From Lophium mytilinum (Eukaryota), in the NCBI GenBank assembly GCA_010093605.1, contig MU004185.1, positions 2,377,334 to 2,424,426 on the forward strand: a stretch of DNA of 47,093 nucleotides, in the 5' to 3' direction. The notes beneath the pieces were generated by a model. The model saw only the letters and a program-made list of their open reading frames with translations, did not search any database and was not told the origin of the DNA. Made by a program: the position numbers and the translations under genes. Within the stretch, counting starts at the first letter, position 1, and the number at the start of each line of letters is the position of its first letter. Below are positions 25,586 through 35,997 of this stretch, one piece after another.

Positions 25586-26552
25586 ATGAGCATGACCGAA
25601 GTCGAAAAGCCCGCCCAGCCAGTCAAGAAAGGGAATCCGTTTGCTGGCACGGAGGGAATCTACCTGCTTCCACACCACATCAAAGAAATCGAAAGGCTGA
25701 GGGGCCAGCATAGACTCATCCTTTCATCGACCGGGAACACCCTTCTCACCGCACCGATCAAAGAAAAGAAGCCTCGTGTGCTTGATTCTGGCGCAGCTGA
25801 TGGTAGAATGATCCACTTTCGCCGAGTGACTGGGCCGAGCTAACTGAACGCAAGGTACTTGGCTGCTCGATCTCCAAAGGCTATATCCACAGTATGAATG
25901 GTCTCTTCACGGCGTCGATATCGGTTCCGCGCTTTTCCCACACAAGAGTGGACCCTACGAGTCTCTCGACCTGCATGAACTCGACGCTCGAGCTCCAGCG
26001 CCGTCTAATCTTGGATGGGAGGGTTCTTTTGACCTCATCCACCAGCGTCTTCTGATTTGGGGGTTCCAGAAGAAAGATTGGCCGGCCGTCTTGAAAAACC
26101 AACTCGCACTCCTCAAACCTGGGGGCTGGATCCAATTGGTGGAGACGCAGTGGGTAGATCGTGACCACCCTTTCGACGCGGCGCAGTATCCAAATCTCGC
26201 AAAGCAAACTACTCTCCAGACATGGAGCACTGATGTGTCTGGTATGGATATCTTCATTGCGTACAACTTGGAGGATCATCTGAAGGAGCTTGGGTTCGAG
26301 AACGTAAGCAAGCGGGACTTCGTGCTCGGGTACGGCGCAAAAGCAAAAGAGGAGAGTCAGAACCGTCCCTCCGCTGATCTGTGGATCAAGACCTTCACCA
26401 GCTTTGGAGAGCGATGGCCTGAAGGCGGCATTCCAGGAGTTGCGAAGACGAAAGAAGAGTTCTACCAATTCTTGGAAGATTTGAAGAATGAGGTGTCCGA
26501 GGTCGGGTATGCGCCAAAAATCAGCTACGTTATTGGACAGAAGCCGCTGTAG
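25586..26552 (+). CDS. Class I SAM-dependent methyltransferase (SirN/GliN/LaeA-like); join(25586..25802,25855..26552), 304 aa
   Basis: YLLPHHIKEIERLRGQH, motif I RVLDSGAADGTWLLDL across the intron, LHGVDI, FDLIHQRLL and LLKPGGWIQLVE. Confidence 0.88.
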
Positions 26553-27349: not shown

Positions 27350-29157
27350 ATGAAGATCAACGGTCTTGTAGCCATTATTTCCCTCGCCGGCTCGACGTAT
27401 GCTTCAAACTACACAGTCGGCCAGACCGTTGACACAGGAAGTGGTTCAGTCGTCGGCCATGCTGCGCCCATCGCCAGTGCTGTTTCTGAGTATTTAGGCA
27501 TTCCGTATGCCCAACCACCGGTCAAGAATTTGAGGTTTGCTCCTCCGCTTGCCTACACTGGGAACTCGACCATTAATGCGTCAGCTTTTGTATGTGCCAA
27601 CAGCATCGCCCCCGTATTCTTTAAGGTGTACTCATAACGATTAGGGTCCTTCGTGCACCGTAGCCAAAAGTAACGCTCTCAGCGCGTCCAATTCATCAAC
27701 TTCTCTGAACCTCACGGCTGCTGGAAGAATCATGGCAGCGGAGATCGGTGAAACGGGACTGAATCTCACACTTAGTGAGGACTGTTTGACAATGAACGTC
27801 TGGACGAAGCCCCAAACTGGTGATGCCAAGAAAGCCGTCCTCGTCTGGATGTACGGCGGATTCTACACCATCGGCTCCTCTGCCATACCTCTTTACAACG
27901 GCCAATTCATCGCTGACCAAGAAGACGTCGTCGTGGTTACCATCAAGTAAGGATTCTCCGCACTCTTACCGTCCTATTCCCCGGACCAGGGATCAAGTCT
28001 CACACGATATCTCCAGCTACCGCGTCAACATCTGGGGCTTCCCCTCCTCGCCAACACTTCCTCAGAACGTCGGCCTCCTCGATCAGCGGCTAGCCCTCGA
28101 ATGGATCCGCCAAAATATCGCCGCCTTCGCTGGTGACCCCTCTCGTATCACGCTGATGGGCCAGTCAGCCGGCGCCGGATCTGCGGACCTATATTCCTAC
28201 AAGTGGACAGAGGATCCTATCGTCAATGCCTTCATCATGGAGTCAGGCACCACGGAAGTCGTGGTCCCACTGAACGCATCCACGGGTGCAGAGCAGTGGT
28301 TCAATGTCTCCGCGTCGCTCGGCTGCGGTGGAGCTGATACGGAGGAAGCGCAAGTCTTGGCCTGTATGCGCCAGGTCAATTCGTCCGCTCTTGCATCCTC
28401 CCTTGGCTCAAACTCCTTCTCGCCTACCATTGACAACACCCTAGTGTTCGACAACTACACTGCTCGCGCCGCCGCAGGCGATTTCATCAAAAAGCCTCTT
28501 CTAATCGGCAACAACAACAACGAACCAAGCGTCTTCCGTCTCATAGCCCTCGCGAAAGGGGAGGACCTGCCAGACGCTTACTGGCAAGCTGTTGGCCTGA
28601 AGACATTCGACTGCCCTTGCGCTGCGCGCGCAAACGTTTCTATCTTCAACAAGGTACCCACCTGGCGCTATCGCTTCTTCGGAGTATTCCCAGACACCAA
28701 CCTTACTACCAACCCGGACAGTGGCGCCTATCACGGCAGCGAGATCCCCATGATTTTCGGCGTGCCGCCCGCTGGACAGGGCATTGCAAACAGCTCGCAG
28801 CAAGAGCTCGCGCTCATGAGTTATATGCGCGGCGCCTGGACGACGTTTGCCAAGGATCCAGTCGCGGGCCTGAGCAGGTACGAGGGCGGATGGCCAAGTT
28901 ACGATCCGGCGCAGGATACGCTGATTCGACTTGGCTTTGGTGAGCAAACAGGGACTAACGTGGGCTTGGCTGGAACATATGATGCTCCTTGTGGAACGCT
29001 GTTCTCGAGTATTTCGGGCGTGGGGAACGGAAAGAGCAGTGGGAATGGCACGTTGATATCGAACACCTCCAGCGCGGGTGTAGGATCAGCCCCCTGCGGC
29101 TACACTGTAGCTTTCGTAGTTGGGATCTTGTCGCTTGGGTGGATTTGCGCAATATAG
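27350..29157 (+). CDS. Secreted type-B carboxylesterase/cholinesterase-like hydrolase, probably GPI-anchored; join(27350..27589,27645..27946,28017..29157), 560 aa
   Basis: Signal peptide, YLGIPYAQPPVKNLRFAPP, SEDCLTMNVW, WMYGGF, NYRVNIWGF, nucleophile GQSAG, GNNNNE and GAYHGSEI. Ends in an S/G-rich linker plus hydrophobic tail. Confidence 0.92.
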
Positions 29158-30200: not shown

Positions 30201-31876
30201 TCAGATTGAAATACCATTGATTCTGGCCAGGATCTGCTCTATGAACCTTATGCCGACGAGAATTCCATCTTTGTCCTCCTGGTTTGCATCCCCAAACATT
30301 TCATTCCTCGGATCCAGACACTCTAGACACGATGTTACAACCTCAGTATACACGTCCCCGCAGCGTGACGGAAGCTTCCTCTTCGCCATGCCCACGAGCT
30401 GCTCCTTGGTCCGAAGACGAGTACTTAGATGGGCAGCCTCGAAATCTGCATCGCAGATCTGGATCTCCGAGGAAGCCGGCGTAACAGGTGCAGCGGTCGG
30501 ATTCAATCCCGGATAGTGCACGAATGACTGCCATAGGCCTATCTCCAGCAAGCAAACACCAAGACTGTAAATGTCGTGCTGCATTACATAGCGATTCATT
30601 ACATTCGTTCCTTGGCGTTCCGGATGGCGATATAAGTTTCGATACCAGGCCGGGTCTCCGAGAGGTTGGTCTGCTGGTTTGAACGCCGGAATTGGTTGAA
30701 GCCAACTAGGAAACTCATGCCGAGCAATGAATCTCTGCTCGGAAATACGAGGATGTTCTCTGGTCTGATATTCTTGTGCACGAAGCCGGAGGTGTGGACG
30801 AAGCTGACCGAGCGAATTAACTGCTTAGCGATTCGCATAAGAGAATTGAGACTAGCACCAAAACTTCGGTCCAGAAGCAGTCCGCGAAGGCTAGCTGGGA
30901 CAGCGCTATTTTGAGGAGTCCCATACAGAAGCTCAACTCCGTTGACAGCCTTGGTCGCGGATTCTCGATGTCTGACCAGACCCCTGCAGCTGAGCAGGCC
31001 GAATGTAGATGGATCGATTTGCTGAAGTATACCCGCCAGCGATTCCACGTCAGCTTTAATCTTGGTAAAGTCCAGTGGTCCATGACTCCCATCCGGGGAT
31101 GTCACCGCTTCCGAAACATAAAGCCTGGTTTGGCCACCGTTCTCTCGAATGATTGCTCTCGCTGTGGAAAACATGATTGGAATATCTTTCGAGTTCTCCA
31201 GCGTTGCCCATTCAAGGTAGAGGCGGGCGCGGTAGTCTGGATGTGTAGCTGAACGAAGCTTCCACATGTTCGTAAGTGGATTTAGTTGGTTCTTCAAGAA
31301 GTCCATTTGCATGTTTGGCTCATTTGCTAATTCTCTGTTTGCTTGTCGAAGTTCGAGGTCCATGATTTTATTGCTGTTGAGTATCATCAAATACCAGGTC
31401 GGATCAAAGCGGCTTTGCCATGCCTCCAGCTCAATGACTAGTTCTCTCAGACTGTTTTTTATCGCCCACTTCCATTTTTTGAGGAAATCCGTAATCCTTT
31501 GCTTAGGCGAACGGTCATTCATGTCATTAACGGAGTTCTCCAGCGCAAGCTGAGTGATGGCTTGACGTAGTTTGCCTTCCAGTATATGTAACAAGTTCAG
31601 TTGACTTCTTGCCAGCTCCTTTTCGAGTGACTCGGAGATTTTCGAAAGAAAACGCATCTGAGACTCGATTCTGATCCAGATAGCATCCACCAACACCGTT
31701 TTCTCTTCGATTTCTCTGTCATGTGCTCTAAATCTTTGGCAGATCTCTTTGACTTCGTGAGCTGATCTGCCATTAGGCAACTTAAGTAAGCTATGAACGT
31801 CCTTTACCAGCACTATTCTCACTCACCTGATGCATACGTCGACCGCGCCAACGACCGCGAGTGCCAGTTCGGCCAT
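30201..31876 (-). pseudogene. HeLo/HELL-like N-terminal domain + pseudokinase (MLKL-like architecture); exons 31876-31827 and 31766-30201; 1-bp frameshift at about 30660; 538 aa if repaired
   Basis: Exon 1 MAELALAVVGAVDVCIR, then a helical bundle ending in KWKWAIKNSLRELVIELEAWQSRFDPTW. Kinase-fold motifs FGLLSCRG, FVHKNIRPENIL, LVGFNQFR; after a frameshift GDPAWYRNLYRHPERQG, QHDIYSLGVCLLEIGLW and YTEVVTSCLECL. Exon total is 1616 nt, one base short of a multiple of 3. Confidence 0.82.
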
Positions 31877-32520
31877 GGCTGACTGAGTATATCAATCGAA
31901 CACACGATTTGGGGATGAATCACCACGCTGGATGCACTCCCATTTTCAATGGAACGGACAGCGGTGAGGCAGACTCGTTCATCTTCATCTTTGCGACTCA
32001 AGCCCATTGCGAGGCTATGTTTTGGCGCCGACCCCCACGCCCAGCCAGCCACTTTGTGGCTATGCACAACTCCAAGCGCCGGGCGCATTCGTTGCGGCCT
32101 CAAAACGCGACCCCCTGTTATCCTGAACCAACCGCGTATCTACTATATACTGACACGGACGCCCGGCTGAGCACTTGTCTGATCGTCTCGTCTGGTCGGA
32201 AATCTACCCTACCATTGGACCCGTTGCACCGATCACCAATGACAATGGTCTCGGTGCGTCTCCTTTGACAGTGGCATCAATCCCATCGTTTTCATGCTCT
32301 TTTGAGTAACGAGCTCTTTTTCTGTTTTATTGCGGTCAATCTGCTTTGAAGCCCTCTTTCGCATCTTCCGTTATCATCTCTGCGTAAGTAATCGGGATTT
32401 CCTATGCGTAAGGGGAAACAGCCACTAAAGACGGAGCGGTATTTACATCCTCAAAGAAGTTCAAACAGGATCTGATTCTCTTCCAGCTAATTCGATAAAT
32501 ACTACCTGAGTTGGAACACG

Positions 32521-34821
32521 ATGGAACAGGTTCTAGAGCTTGTCTCGGCTTTGAAGTTGGACACGGAATTCTTGCCCGAAGGTGTGAAGCACAAGAGACA
32601 TATACCGAAGCCGAGATCAAGCCAGTCTTCCAAAGCAGCCAAGAAACGCAAAAGACCCAACAGAAATCTGTTTCAAATTGGGCAAGAGTCGCCTATGCAG
32701 ATCGAAGAAGAATCACTTGTCCATATCGAAGAGCGGTCGCCGACGAAAATCGACGCAGAGTCATCTCTTCCGATTGAGCAGGCCGTGATGACCGAGTTTG
32801 AAGAGACTTGGGACATTGAGCCAAGTTCAATCATTGGCCAGGGTGCTTTTGGAATCGTGCGGTTTGAGCGACGTCGACCACAGATGGTTAATCATACACA
32901 GACTGCTCACAATCAGGTTCGAGCAGTAAAAGAGATTAGGAAACTGGGCACTCCAGATTACATAAAAGAGCTCCAAGCTGTTGCACAGTTCTCGCAGGCT
33001 CAAGTATTTCAAATCGGTTCTCTCCACGATGAAAATACTGGCTGCTAATTTCTCCATCAGTACGAGCTGTATTTTGTTCAAAGCTATGGATGGTTTGAGA
33101 ATCAGGAGTCTGTGTTCATTACGATGGAATACTTGCGCCTTGGAGATTTGTCGCGCTTCAGAGACCGTAATGGCCCATTCCCCGAACAGTCGGCTGGGCT
33201 TATCGTGCGACAAGTCCTTGAAGGGATACGATTCATGCATGAGATCAATTTTGCTCATAGAGATTTGAAGCCGGGTGTGGGTGATACAATCTTGATGTTC
33301 ATGTCAACCCAGGCACTCACAGGAACGTAGAACATCTTAGTAGCATCCACATCGCCATGGGCTGTCAAAATAGCAGATTTCGGCATTAGTAAGCAGTGCA
33401 ACGAAGGAACGCAGTTGCAAACACAACTTGGTACTCCCGAATACATGGCACCCGAGCAAAAAGGTCATTTCAGAAGCAGTCAAGGTGTCACTACGTACTC
33501 GCTCTCCGTCGATATCTGGGCCATTGGTGTGATAGCCATGGAATTGATCCTAGCTCATCCATTCCTTTACCCCTCTGATCAGGAAGATTATACCCGAGGT
33601 ATCAAGCCGCTCGAATTTAATCACCCTTCGCAAATAGGTATTTCCGAGTCATGTCAAGATTTCGTCAAGAGCTTGTTAACTCCAAATCCTATACACCGAC
33701 CATCAGCGGAGGCTGCAATTTCCCATTCATGGTTCGCTCAAGTAGCGCTCTGGCTGAATGAAGATGATTCGTAAGTGCTCAAGAGTTACCCAATGATCGC
33801 GTCGGATTCCAACCAATTCACAGACTCTTCGTTCAAGATGAAGCTATCCCATCTCAACGCCGCGATGCTGCTACAGCTTCCCCAATGCCATTGCTCAGCT
33901 GGTCTACCTTCGGAAATCTACGGCTTACGAATAGATCGCCAAAAAGGACTCGCAACACGAGAAGTTCTAGTAATTCAAAAAGCAGTCGCAGCACAATAGG
34001 CTCTCGCAGCACCCAAAGAACTCAAAACCCATCAAGGACGTCGGAGACAGAGGTTACTATTCTGGATACTTATCAGGGACGATCTTTTGATGTCAGGCTT
34101 CTGGCTTCATCATTTCGACATCTCTCCCTGGATACCGTAAGTCTCTTTGCTCCAAACTCACGAACATTGTAGTGGTATGACATTAATTCTGCGCGCAGAC
34201 AAAATATTTCGTCTTGCGATCCGATAACGAGGCGGATATGGAACTGTGCTTTGCCCAAGGCAGGTGGACAGCGCTACCAAAGGCAAACAAAATGCTCGAT
34301 AACGGCTATCGGAGATCAGGTGGAAATGTGCTTATTTTCTTTTCGGTGGTCGAAAGGTACGTCCTTACTATCTTACATTCGCAGATACCACCGCTAATAT
34401 GGAAGACAAAAGTCGTAAATTCTACGGTATTGCTAAAATGACAAGTCCCGTGGACTGGAACACCACCGATCCCGACTGGGTACCCAGACCCGATGGCCAA
34501 GTTTACCATGGGTGAGTATCAAGGAATATTTTTCACTCGGGCCAGTTCTCTAACCTTGCGGTGACCAGGCGATTTACCGTTGATTGGGTTTGTTTGAATG
34601 AGCTATCCTTCGACAGAATCAAAGGCGTCCCAGCTTATCTTGGGAAGGGCCGCCTCGCTGTAGCCGTTATGGATGGGCAGGCGATTTGCCCTGAATCGGG
34701 ATACGAAATATTGAGGGCATACTCAGAAGAAGACCGAAGATCGCCGTGTAGCTTGGAGAGACGACAGATAAACGATGTCAATATGGAGGTTACGCTTGCG
34801 AGTTCCACTGTGCCGTACTAG
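32521..34821 (+). CDS. Ser/Thr protein kinase fused to a C-terminal YTH domain; join(32521..33003,33061..33276,33331..33770,33824..34136,34199..34356,34413..34511,34569..34821), 653 aa
   Basis: Kinase motifs IGQGAFGIV, RAVKEI, KELQAV, ITMEY, HRDLKPGNIL, KIADFGISK, GTPEYMAPE and DIWAIG. YTH-like: KYFVLRSDNEADMELCFAQGRWTA...NVLIFFSVVESRKFYGIAKMTSPVDW...DW...GRFTVDWV...LSF...MDGQAI...GYEIL. Six GT-AG introns give a stop-free 1962-nt CDS. Confidence 0.85.
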
Positions 34822-35388
34822 TGGCGCGACTTCATAGCAACTTTACTCGCTGGCAGCCAATTATTACAGCAGTTGACGCTCTGATGATTTCAGAAAACGA
34901 GTGTTATGGCGGTGCAGAGTTTGTCTGTGAGAACTCTTCCAGGCGACGTCATTAGGATCAGCACCCTTGACAAGGCGGAGTAGACCCTGAACGTGGCGGA
35001 GCAAGTTAGCCTTGCCGTATTCATCTCACATATATATCACACCAAGCTTAGATCTCCATCTAATAGACACAGATAAGTCGCGGCTTTGCATTTCTCGTCA
35101 TTCAAAACAAAAGGTCCAGCAAATTCTGCGTCCTCGAATCCGGCATCATTGACGGAAAGTGGAGATATCGCAAGACAGCACACGTTGCACCTAGGGATTA
35201 TATCGAGAGCAACATCTTTGCTTTCTTACTCGCATCTGACTCGTCGCAATGGCTGCAAAAGAGCCGTCCTCTTACTCGTCCGAGACCCGTCCAGAATACA
35301 CGCCATCCACCCTCCCTCATACCGCACCGTCGCCTCAACCCTACCCGCAACAAGACAAAACCAGACACAAGATGCACTCGCCGCAGCG

Positions 35389-35997
35389 ATGCCCAACGCG
35401 CTCTCGGTTCCCACATACCGCGGCGGCATCAAGCCCATAGCCTCCCGGTTCCGCCTCTACGCCGAATCCGGCTTCACAGGCCGCAAGAGCGTCACCTTCA
35501 TGCTGCCGGACAAACGCACACCAGCCTACTTCGTCGACTACCGCACCCATATTGCAGACCTCGTAGTCCACCGCGGCGCCTCTTCGGGTCCAGTCGTCGG
35601 AAACGTGCATTGTCACAAGTTCAGGCCAACCGAATTCGTCTTTGCGAACGGCCAAAAGGGCAAGATGTACAAGGACGGCTTCTTCACACGGAGGCATGTC
35701 GTCAACTTGCCGGCGGGGCCCGAGAAGGGTCAGTATTTCTGGAAGGGGACGAGCGATTACGGCGCGTCGCCCATGAGGGGTGGAAATTTGAAGCTTGAGT
35801 CGCCGAGCGGGACTGTCTTTGCGGCGTATTTGCGCTCGAGCGGCTCCAGGAAGGACGGCCAGCTGGATATTTTGGTTGAGGGGCTCGATCAAGACTTTGT
35901 GGATCAGATTGTGGTTAGTCTCATGGCGATGGCCGAGGAGGAGAGGAGGCGGCGGGGTGCTGGAGCTGGAGCTGCAGGAGGAGGCGGTGGGGCTTGA
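35389..35997 (+). CDS. Conserved fungal hypothetical protein, tubby-C/LURP-one/DUF6593-like, 202 aa
   Basis: GC3-rich intronless ORF with TPAYFV...DLVVHRG...PVVG...YFWKGT...NLKL...VFAAY...GQLDI...DQIVVSLMAMAEEERRR and a Gly/Ala tail, a pattern typical of this fungal family. Confidence 0.7.
   Translation: MPNALSVPTYRGGIKPIASRFRLYAESGFTGRKSVTFMLPDKRTPAYFVDYRTHIADLVVHRGASSGPVVGNVHCHKFRPTEFVFANGQKGKMYKDGFFTRRHVVNLPAGPEKGQYFWKGTSDYGASPMRGGNLKLESPSGTVFAAYLRSSGSRKDGQLDILVEGLDQDFVDQIVVSLMAMAEEERRRRGAGAGAAGGGGGA

Follow-up and report, generated by a model that had tools for sequence, protein, structure and literature searches.

A spliced fungal gene in Lophium mytilinum that joins a protein kinase to a YTH domain

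Introduction

The YTH readers known so far recruit other proteins, be they decay, splicing or translation factors. Human YTHDC1 acts through bound partner proteins and has no kinase domain, and in YTHDF1, YTHDF2 and YTHDF3 and in yeast Pho92/MRB1 the YTH domain is paired with low-complexity effector regions, not with an enzyme. Schizosaccharomyces pombe Mmi1 is also a fungal YTH-domain protein without a kinase, and its YTH domain binds RNA without m6A and does not bind the m6A consensus, according to the available part of PMC10826363. As described in that part, the survey's fungal YTH phylogeny comprises PHO92 and YTH1 clades alone, with no word of kinases. By the same account, writers of the METTL3/METTL14 type are gone from the Pezizomycotina and MTA1, a METTL4 homologue, is the one that remains, so that it is less sure than in yeast or animals how abundant the ligand is in these fungi, and what it is. 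The source also reports that m6A could be measured in F. graminearum and M. oryzae RNA. Here we describe a gene of Lophium mytilinum (Dothideomycetes) that lies in the window, the whole 47,093-nt stretch of contig MU004185.1 that was analysed, and whose protein carries a YTH domain behind a protein kinase.

Results

Gene structure and transcript evidence

The fused kinase-YTH gene is a real and apparently expressed fungal gene with seven coding exons and a 5' UTR intron (Table 1). The initial annotation had proposed six GT-AG introns hiding one 653-amino-acid frame in the order kinase, linker, YTH, and both the introns and the order proved correct. When the introns, all GT..AG and 53 to 62 nt long, are removed from the window sequence, a coding sequence of 1962 nt (653 amino acids and a stop) is left, and its translation is letter for letter that of the database protein P0001, "kinase-like protein [Lophium mytilinum]". 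A 2242-nt contig from the public run X1 lacks the six coding introns as well as the 5' UTR intron, which had been missed, and its exons sum to 2242 nt. The contig holds the kinase and YTH exons in a single frame across the joint 33770/33824, so that intron 3 with its in-frame TAA, where the transcript might have ended, is absent from it. Run X1 is the one sequencing run listed for this sequence, and it is presumed, not recorded, to be RNA; its contig informs on joints rather than on where transcripts end, how strongly the gene is expressed or which minor isoforms exist, and the 3' end of the contig falls 16 nt before the end of the stop codon. Because X1 and the assembly probably share their source organism, the run may underlie the public gene model. 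The 5' UTR exon contains three tiny uORFs of 9, 7 and 3 codons, and the first coding exon reaches 5' to 32487 as UTR in the contig. When the exon pieces were scanned singly, five of the seven matched Pfam, with colinear Pkinase and YTH profile positions; the two without a match were coding exon 1 and the linker exon.

Table 1. Positions within the window of the kinase-YTH gene, its exons, introns and domains
Feature	Position	Strand	Remarks
5' UTR exon (minimum extent)	32122-32383	+	First piece of X1 contig
5' UTR intron	32384-32486	+	103 nt, GT..AG; contig joint 32383/32487
Coding sequence	32521-34821	+	
Coding exon 1	32521-33003	+	N-terminal cap (aa 1-30), disordered basic segment, kinase N-lobe (GQGAFG, VAVK)
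Protein kinase domain (aa 102-368)	32824-33735	+	Pfam PF00069, 173.4 bits; across introns 1 and 2
Intron 1	33004-33060	+	57 nt, GT..AG; absent from X1 contig
Coding exon 2	33061-33276	+	Kinase with HRDLKPGN; Pkinase profile 61-126, E 4.6e-15
Intron 2	33277-33330	+	54 nt, GT..AG; absent from X1 contig
Coding exon 3	33331-33770	+	Kinase C-lobe; Pkinase profile 128-263, E 1.7e-26
Intron 3	33771-33823	+	53 nt; absent from X1 contig
Coding exon 4	33824-34136	+	S/R/T-rich disordered linker, then conserved YTH lead-in TYxGxxFDxxLL
Intron 4	34137-34198	+	62 nt, GT..AG; absent from X1 contig
YTH domain (aa 485-620)	34199-34719	+	Pfam PF04146, 95.0 bits; across introns 5 and 6
Coding exon 5	34199-34356	+	YTH part 1 (R491, D497, W507); YTH profile 1-50, E 2.6e-10
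Intron 5	34357-34412	+	56 nt; absent from X1 contig; joint with 4-nt ambiguity
Coding exon 6	34413-34511	+	YTH part 2 (W559, Y568); YTH profile 54-77
Intron 6	34512-34568	+	57 nt; absent from X1 contig; joint with 1-nt ambiguity
Coding exon 7	34569-34821	+	YTH part 3 (FTVDW, D605-G606), YTH profile 85-133; C-terminal helix, low-confidence tail
Stop codon	34819-34821	+	End of coding exon 7; X1 contig covers the exon to 34805

Kinase domain and N-terminal region

On the whole spliced protein both profile scores are far beyond chance (cut-offs of 31.7 bits for PF00069 and 22.1 bits for PF04146). The best solved relatives of the kinase are STK17B (E 7.9e-32), Rad53, STK17A and CaMK1D, whose scores of 113.6 to 106.5 bits lie within about 7 bits of one another, and we class it as a Ser/Thr kinase of the CAMK group and of the RD type. 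This protein shares its full set of catalytic motifs with STK17B/DRAK2, Rad53 and CaMK1 (PDB 3lm0, 5xzv, 6qp5; E 7.9e-32 to 1e-29), but the match is confined to the catalytic domain, and the Lophium protein has no FHA domain, calmodulin-binding segment or death domain. The names "Serine/threonine-protein kinase 17B" and "RAD53 like" that relatives bear in databases are probably similarity transfers rather than signs of orthology.

The motif set consists of G106/G108/G111, K137 (the VAVK lysine, codon 32929-32931), E150, H227-R228-D229 (D229, 33262-33264), K231, N234, D249-F250-G251 (D249 of the DFG, 33376-33378) and A273-P274-E275. It is kept in 44 to 51 of 51 aligned family rows, the shortfalls being almost all gaps in truncated models: D229, K231, N234, D249, F250, A273, P274 and E275 occur in every row, and K137 in 45 with gaps in the other six. 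With all catalytic residues kept, the predicted kinase is apparently of the active type. Thr264 in the activation loop is invariant in the 31 rows of alignment A4 and stands nine residues before the APE, the spacing of Thr197 in PKA.

A short, folded and conserved cap (aa 1-30, motif LV..S.L.TEF) precedes the kinase. It was rejected as a signature of kinase-YTH proteins, as kinase-only relatives have the same cap. The NLS-like KKRKRP that had been pointed out before the kinase is indeed present (residues 41-46, 32641-32658), inside a segment predicted to be disordered. Venturia has it as KKRKR, but neither Pseudogymnoascus nor any other aligned member does, and it was rejected as a nuclear localization signal of the family.

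YTH domain and its pocket

The YTH domain covers positions 1-133 of the 135 in the PF04146 profile, and the motifs by which it had been recognized (GRW, DPDW, FSV..S..F.G.A.M.S, FTVDW and DGQAI) are all there. The closest solved YTH domain by sequence is that of human YTHDC1 (E 3.1e-15, 59 bits), with YTHDF1 at 48 bits. The YTHDF, Pho92 and MRB1 chains are weaker matches (E 7e-12 to 1e-6, the MRB1 chains at 4e-10 and 1e-6), and the Mmi1 chains are marginal (E 0.041-0.12). An AF2 model of the domain (pLDDT 88.6, pTM 0.82) matched 153 PDB chains in Foldseek at E <= 0.001, and the best 40 of the 153 were all YTHDF2 or YTHDC1 with TMt of 0.76-0.85. The best fold match of all was YTHDF2 (4rdn_A, E 1.1e-13, TMt 0.84), from the set of YTHDF and Pho92/MRB1 structures (PDB 4rdn, 4rcj, 4rcm, 4u8t) whose sequence match is the weaker one. 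YTHDC1 was also among the top matches (7l4y_B, TMt 0.78), and over YTHDC1 structures (PDB 4r3i, 6rt4 and others) the TM was 0.76-0.81. The N-terminal kinase and an MRB1 match weaker than that to YTHDC1 set the protein apart from the Pho92/MRB1 and fungal YTH1 readers.

In the HMMER alignment W507, W559 and Y568 (codons 34265-34267, 34477-34479 and 34504-34506) pair with W377, W428 and L439 of YTHDC1, and D497 pairs with N367; the YTHDC1 numbers come from chain indices and agree with the usual numbering. The three YTHDC1 residues are the methyl-adenine cage, with N367 contacting a ring nitrogen of the adenine, so the tryptophans of GRW and DPDW, earlier called cage-like, align with cage residues. 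The two proteins further share a basic residue at the K361 position (R491 here), a Ser or Thr that follows the first Trp, and the Asp-Gly of the RDGQ loop. They differ at the third cage position, where Lophium has Tyr and YTHDC1 has Leu, and at N367, which is replaced by Asp; a third cage position that is always aromatic and an Asp at the N367 position are YTHDF-like features. Among 51 family rows the W507 and W559 positions are each Trp in 50, with one gap, the third cage position is Trp in 46, Tyr in four and a gap in one, and the D497 position is Asp in 48, Asn in one and a gap in two. The near-invariance of these four positions suggests selection on the methyl-adenine pocket, which, as judged from W507, W559, Y568 and D497, is intact, and the domain is predicted to be of the m6A-reading type. 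R475 of YTHDC1 contacts RNA. Its equivalent is Met in Lophium, so that the RNA contacts may differ here, and over the 51 rows the position holds Tyr (34), Phe (6), Met (4), Ile (1), Arg (1) or a gap (5).

Linker

The predicted full-length model has two confident domains joined by a linker with pLDDT of about 30. Some 90 residues (aa 377-465, pLDDT <50) are disordered and presumably flexible. The linker has 21 Ser, 14 Arg and 13 Thr among 105 residues and is rich in RS and RT dipeptides, not in RxxS/T. We rejected the idea that it contains CAMK-type auto-phosphorylation sites, as the pattern Basic-x-x-S/T occurs twice, compared with 5.06 +/- 1.70 in 2000 shuffles, of which 1972 reach two or more. 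The peptide that follows intron 3, VQDE.IPSQR.D...SP.PL.SWSTFGNLRLT, is conserved in Lophium, Pseudogymnoascus and Venturia. Pfam found only Pkinase and YTH on the whole protein, the region between them being predicted disordered. A fungal NLR-like sensor with a kinase head was rejected on the same search, in which the central NACHT or NB-ARC NTPase was absent.

Family distribution

The initial annotation had called the architecture unusual. This holds against the YTH proteins that have been studied, but kinase-YTH proteins form, by sequence comparison, a conserved family in public protein sets, annotated merely as "kinase-like protein". Both domains were found by profile search in at least 46 of 120 protein clusters among the matches listed, from at least 42 named species of Xylariales, Sordariales, Hypocreales, Leotiomycetes and Dothideomycetes, and the order kinase then YTH was seen in seven of the best 150 representatives at 50% identity. 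For the relatives we rely on predicted gene models, several of them plainly faulty: P0004 is missing YTH exons, in P0005 an intron has been read through, and P0191 has been fused to a P450. The nearest kinase relatives without YTH, among the matches listed, belong to Pezizomycotina and have WD40, ankyrin, RhoGAP or BAG C-termini; they share the cap motif with the Lophium protein and differ in the C-terminal module. The YTH-bearing proteins form a clade of their own (100% SH-aLRT) against five cap-sharing kinase outgroups. Distribution is patchy and the gene tree is at odds with taxonomy; a tree constrained to keep the three copies from Leotiomycetes as one group is 278 lnL units worse (p-AU 6e-65, in a test chosen after the tree had been seen).

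Discussion

We consider it reasonably probable that the 653-amino-acid protein is a fused reader-effector, in which the YTH domain tethers the kinase to nucleic acid marked with N6-methyladenine. The YTH domain would dock the protein on this nucleic acid, most probably m6A in RNA, and the tethered kinase would then phosphorylate proteins on or near the bound RNA. Such a protein would be a modification reader with a built-in effector, which might be regulated through the invariant Thr264. What the analysis shows is the gene structure, the spliced, fused mRNA as seen in the X1 contig, the identity and fold of the domains, the conservation of their residues and the spread of the family. That the YTH domain binds m6A and the kinase is catalytically active, which substrates and cell compartment are involved, and that Thr264 has a regulatory role are the parts of this proposal that we infer.

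The same fusion might instead read N6-methyladenine outside mRNA, in single-stranded or damaged 6mA DNA or in methylated snRNA or other non-coding RNA, with the kinase signalling at chromatin or the spliceosome and not on mRNPs. We regard this as unlikely, though several observations point to it: the retention of METTL4-like MTA1 alone in the Pezizomycotina, in the available part of PMC10826363; the greater sequence similarity of the domain to nuclear YTHDC1 than to YTHDF1; the basic KKRKRP motif in Lophium; and the YTHDC1-N6mA DNA complexes (7l4y, 6wea) among the fold matches, which give DNA binding by the YTH fold a precedent. On the other side stand the m6A measured in RNA of two of these fungi in the same source and the lack of conservation of KKRKRP in the family; the present data fit either an RNA or a DNA ligand. 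It is highly improbable that the domain is Mmi1-like, binding a specific unmethylated RNA motif by another surface and directing the kinase to a sequence-defined set of transcripts. Mmi1, itself fungal, indeed has a YTH domain that leaves the m6A consensus unbound, as the available part of PMC10826363 has it, and the R475-equivalent position is not basic in the family, but the Mmi1 chains match far less well than YTHDC1 or the m6A-binding yeast MRB1, and the cage positions and D497 are nearly invariant. Hardly credible is an annotation artefact in which a kinase gene ends at the TAA 33772-33774 and a separate YTH gene begins at the ATG 33887. The unspliced frame stops at that TAA, so that retention of intron 3 would yield a kinase-only product of 380 amino acids, and 113 nt further on comes the in-frame ATG (M in SPMPLL); however, the X1 contig joins 33770 to 33824 in frame, three genera conserve the peptide from this junction to the Met, the two-domain order is found again in the clusters listed above, and about 110 nt is little space for a terminator and a promoter.

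Two further readings make the protein a sensor. In one, which we think quite unlikely, binding of RNA or DNA with N6-methyladenine would concentrate the RD kinase and trans-activate it through Thr264, the ligand being the cell's own co-transcriptional m6A or a foreign nucleic acid such as mycoviral RNA or bacterial 6mA DNA. If this were true, nucleic-acid modification would be turned directly into a phosphorylation signal by a new class of epitranscriptome effector, possibly an innate-immune-like fungal sensor that has moved between fungal classes. The other, very unlikely in our opinion, places the protein in a modular fungal set with a common kinase head and varied C-termini, in which the YTH domain would detect methylated nucleic acid that is foreign or abnormal and so trigger a stress or defence response. 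The shared cap and diverse C-termini of the closest kinase-only relatives are in line with such a set, as are the patchy distribution and the conflict between tree and taxonomy, although old paralogy with losses also gives incongruent trees. NACHT and NB-ARC domains are absent, no defence-type gene neighbourhood was seen, and no functional link to the neighbouring genes was found.

If the kinase is active and the YTH domain reads m6A, the reader-effector that we favour would be, to our knowledge, the first direct coupling of m6A reading to protein phosphorylation. The family is relevant, too, to the role of m6A in the Pezizomycotina, where METTL4-like MTA1 is the only writer kept and few readers are recognized in the available part of PMC10826363. 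No description of a kinase-YTH protein was found in the openly accessible literature, and an exact-phrase search returned 0 results; supplements of PMC10826363 (Fig. S1, Table S1) could list members. That survey, in its available part, dropped YTH hits whose protein names were judged "irrelevant", and this may explain why the family has gone unnoticed. Among the species that carry the family are some closely related to Podospora anserina, which is genetically tractable.

Gene structure and transcript

A single spliced mRNA of Lophium mytilinum, a Dothideomycete that a taxonomy check places in the order Mytilinidiales, encodes a complete YTH domain flexibly tethered to a kinase. Before splicing the gene offers only fragmentary open reading frames; removing the six introns proposed in the initial annotation from the window sequence leaves a single frame of 1962 nt (653 codons and a stop). 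Its translation is identical to P0001, publicly named "kinase-like protein [Lophium mytilinum]", and the gene model is already present in databases.

The public sequencing run X1, whose kind is merely guessed as RNA, contains 73% of the region's sampled words. One of its contigs spans 32122–34805 and omits exactly the six introns as well as one in the 5' UTR, and since all seven are missing it must derive from spliced RNA. Its exons put together come to 2242 nt and their longest ORF is the same 653-aa protein, the contig breaking off 16 nt short of the last base of the stop codon. Three very short uORFs occur in the 5' UTR. Termination at the stop at 33772–33774, earlier considered as a way in which the YTH exons could be separated, is not what the contig shows: the joint 33770/33824 removes this TAA, which would give a kinase-only product. 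X1 probably comes from the sequenced strain, and may thus underlie the public annotation.

Intron 3 begins with GTAAGT (33771–33776), a 5' splice site that sets an in-frame TAA right after exon 3. Were this intron retained, translation would therefore stop after 380 aa and leave an isoform with the kinase alone. Splicing might in this way switch the kinase between a tethered and an untethered form; contigs reveal neither transcript ends nor minor isoforms.

Features of the kinase-YTH gene, its protein and its surroundings (introns 1–6 are each GT..AG and 53–62 nt long)
Feature	Position	Strand	Remarks
Sodium:solute symporter fragment			Further upstream
Class I methyltransferase-like ORF	25848–26552	+	PF13489, 30.4 bits; further upstream
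Carboxylesterase-family ORF	27796–29157	+	PF00135, 152.6 bits; further upstream
Divergent neighbour gene	30201–31822 (~30.2–31.8 kb)	-	Upstream of kinase-YTH gene
5' UTR intron	32384–32486	+	103 nt, GT..AG; absent from 2242-nt contig
Kinase-YTH gene	32521–34821	+	653 aa
Intron 1	33004–33060	+
Intron 2	33277–33330	+
Intron 3	33771–33823	+
Intron 4	34137–34198	+
Intron 5	34357–34412	+
Intron 6	34512–34568	+
Downstream ORF, DUF6593	35077–35997	+	306 aa; sub-threshold match (24.6 bits, cut-off 27)
N-terminal cap	aa 1–30		Confident in full-length model
Disordered segment	aa 43–85		Contains KKRKRP
Linker	aa 377–465		pLDDT ~30; between folded kinase and folded YTH domain
C-terminal tail			Floppy in full-length model; beyond folded YTH domain

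Domain architecture

The proposed order of kinase, linker and YTH domain in one frame is borne out by the intron-less contig, the Pfam pair and a full-length structure model (pLDDT 72.3, pTM 0.59). Whole-protein Pfam searches place Pkinase (PF00069) at aa 102–368 with 173.4 bits and YTH (PF04146) at aa 485–620 with 95.0 bits, covering profile positions 1–133 of 135, and exon pieces scanned singly match the two families colinearly, in five of the seven pieces. As modelled, the protein amounts to two independent domains on a flexible tether. The linker is abundant in RS and RT dipeptides; CAMK-type autophosphorylation of it was rejected because basic-x-x-S/T is not enriched there (2 observed versus 5.06 ± 1.70 in shuffles).

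The kinase has the full catalytic motif set (GQGAFG, K137, E150, HRD D229, K231, N234, DFG and APE) and is, judging from these residues, apparently active. Its closest solved relatives belong to the CAMK group, STK17B (7.9e-32) being followed by Rad53, STK17A and CaMK1D. T264 lies 9 residues ahead of APE, a spacing which we take to be that of the PKA Thr197 activation site and which would fit an RD kinase controlled by loop phosphorylation.

Among solved chains, sequence search puts the YTH domain nearest to YTHDC1 (3.1e-15), then Arabidopsis CPSF30 YTH (3e-13), YTHDF1 (6.8e-12), yeast MRB1 (4.1e-10) and YTHDC2 (2.8e-08), with Mmi1 a marginal match (0.041 or weaker). For the structural comparison proposed earlier, the C-terminal 187 residues were modelled with AF2 on an alignment of 32 relatives (pLDDT 88.6, pTM 0.82), and the model gave YTHDF2 and YTHDC1 as top Foldseek matches (E ~1e-13, TMt 0.76–0.85, rmsd 1.9–2.9). 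The two tryptophans assigned to the methyl-adenine cage, W507 and W559, do align with W377 and W428 of YTHDC1, and Y568 aligns with L439. D497 stands in place of N367, R491 of K361 and D605-G606 of D476-G477, and the position of YTHDC1 R475 is occupied by Met.

Distribution and evolution of the family

With one YTH exon as query we recovered a Pseudogymnoascus protein of 602 aa in which Pfam likewise finds both domains, and a region search additionally gave Madurella and a Venturia model without two YTH exons. An exhaustive HMMER search with P0001 against 1.84 billion representatives listed 150 proteins, at least seven of which (P0006–P0011 and P0020) have a YTH domain by phmmer with the YTH part, all near the top. 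A profile search from eight members scored 8000 candidates, and at least 46 of the 120 clusters listed, from 42 named organisms and one further, have both PF04146 and a Pfam family of kinases in their precomputed annotation; Venturia is counted outside these through the partial model P0004, whose precomputed annotation is missing PF04146. Members occur in Xylariales (many), Sordariales (Podospora, Cercophora, Triangularia, Chaetomium, Apiosordaria, Achaetomium, Canariomyces, Madurella), Hypocreales (Dactylonectria, Emericellopsis), Verticillium, Leotiomycetes (Pseudogymnoascus, Amylocarpus, Hyaloscypha, Halenospora) and Dothideomycetes (Lophium, Lasiodiplodia, Venturia), class placement having been checked for six organisms and presumably holding for the others.

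In an alignment of 57 rows, 51 of them family members including fragments, D229, K231, N234 and D249 are each present in 51/51, and W507 and W559 each in 50, with one gap. The third cage position is W in 46 and Y in 4, and that of D497 is D in 48 and N in one. At the level of these aligned sequences, strong purifying selection on the catalytic and cage residues is evident.

In a quick maximum-likelihood tree of 52 rows, from which the fragmentary P0008, P0186, P0193, P0195 and P0020 were excluded, five kinase-only outgroups lie apart from the YTH-bearing kinases (SH-aLRT support 100%). A subclade of Lophium, Venturia, Pseudogymnoascus and one further sequence has 100% support too, and a long stem; it is marked by the Tyr variant at the third cage position, by a linker that is long and S/R/T-rich, and by four residues inserted ahead of Y568. 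The Lophium and Pseudogymnoascus proteins, from different classes, are 70–73% identical from end to end, part of the linker included, and other Leotiomycete copies are placed elsewhere in the tree; forcing the three Leotiomycete copies into a single clade changes the log-likelihood by -278 units and is rejected by the AU test (p-AU 6e-65, in a test picked after the tree was seen). Old paralogy with losses would explain both the cross-class similarity and the split Leotiomycetes, and so would horizontal transfer. P0003 and P0004 were the relatives set against the Lophium protein here.

P0194, labelled Lasiodiplodia mahajangana (Dothideomycetes), falls within Nemania (Xylariales) on a very short branch, a placement that would point to wrong labelling or contamination of the assembly, or else to a recent transfer. 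The closest non-YTH kinases also have the N-terminal cap motif and end in other modules (WD40, ankyrin, RhoGAP, BAG); because they combine the same cap with other C-termini, the kinase head looks, within Pezizomycotina, like a module open to reuse.

Possible function and novelty

To our knowledge, the studied YTH proteins, whether the fungal Pho92/MRB1, Mmi1 and YTH1 or the animal and plant readers, are without an enzyme domain. The initial description of the architecture as unusual holds in this respect, but not as regards its occurrence, since it recurs as a family. The fungal proteins, as treated in the accessible text of PMC10826363, differ from the Lophium protein in lacking its kinase. 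That paper, the widest fungal YTH survey found, collected 2,029 fungal PF04146 proteins and, according to the same text, excluded "irrelevant protein names" and proteins beyond 300–1000 aa; the word "kinase" is nowhere used in that text, supplements aside. A kinase-YTH protein is likewise not described in the accessible part of the EVE/DCD/YTH architecture survey PMC7641849, and no description was found in the literature searched. The architecture thus appears to be undescribed and unstudied, although gene models are public, and the Lophium protein may be regarded as a YTH reader that carries its own kinase.

We favour, with some reserve, a reading in which the YTH domain would bind nucleic acid marked by N6-methyladenine, with m6A RNA the likeliest ligand, and would thereby localise the kinase to proteins on the same nucleic acid. 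The ligand is less certain because Pezizomycotina, according to the accessible text of PMC10826363, have only the METTL4-like MTA1, and because YTHDC1 can bind 6mA DNA (entries 7l4y and 6wea, among the fold matches).

Genomic surroundings

The flanking genes in the window suggest no functional link to the kinase-YTH gene, and the carboxylesterase and methyltransferase ORFs look like ordinary metabolic genes. The downstream ORF has a Gly/Ala-rich C-terminus, and X1 contigs span 35101–35600. The divergent neighbour consists of a 407-aa and a 207-aa ORF piece, both long, with an intron probably lying between them; its N-terminal ~300 aa gave no Pfam match. It shows a weak, divergent kinase match near the catalytic loop, with HKN replacing HRD (Pkinase 21.6 bits, under the cut-off; best PDB E 1.4e-4), and may be a pseudokinase. 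The 5' ends of this neighbour and of the kinase-YTH transcript lie ~300 nt apart.
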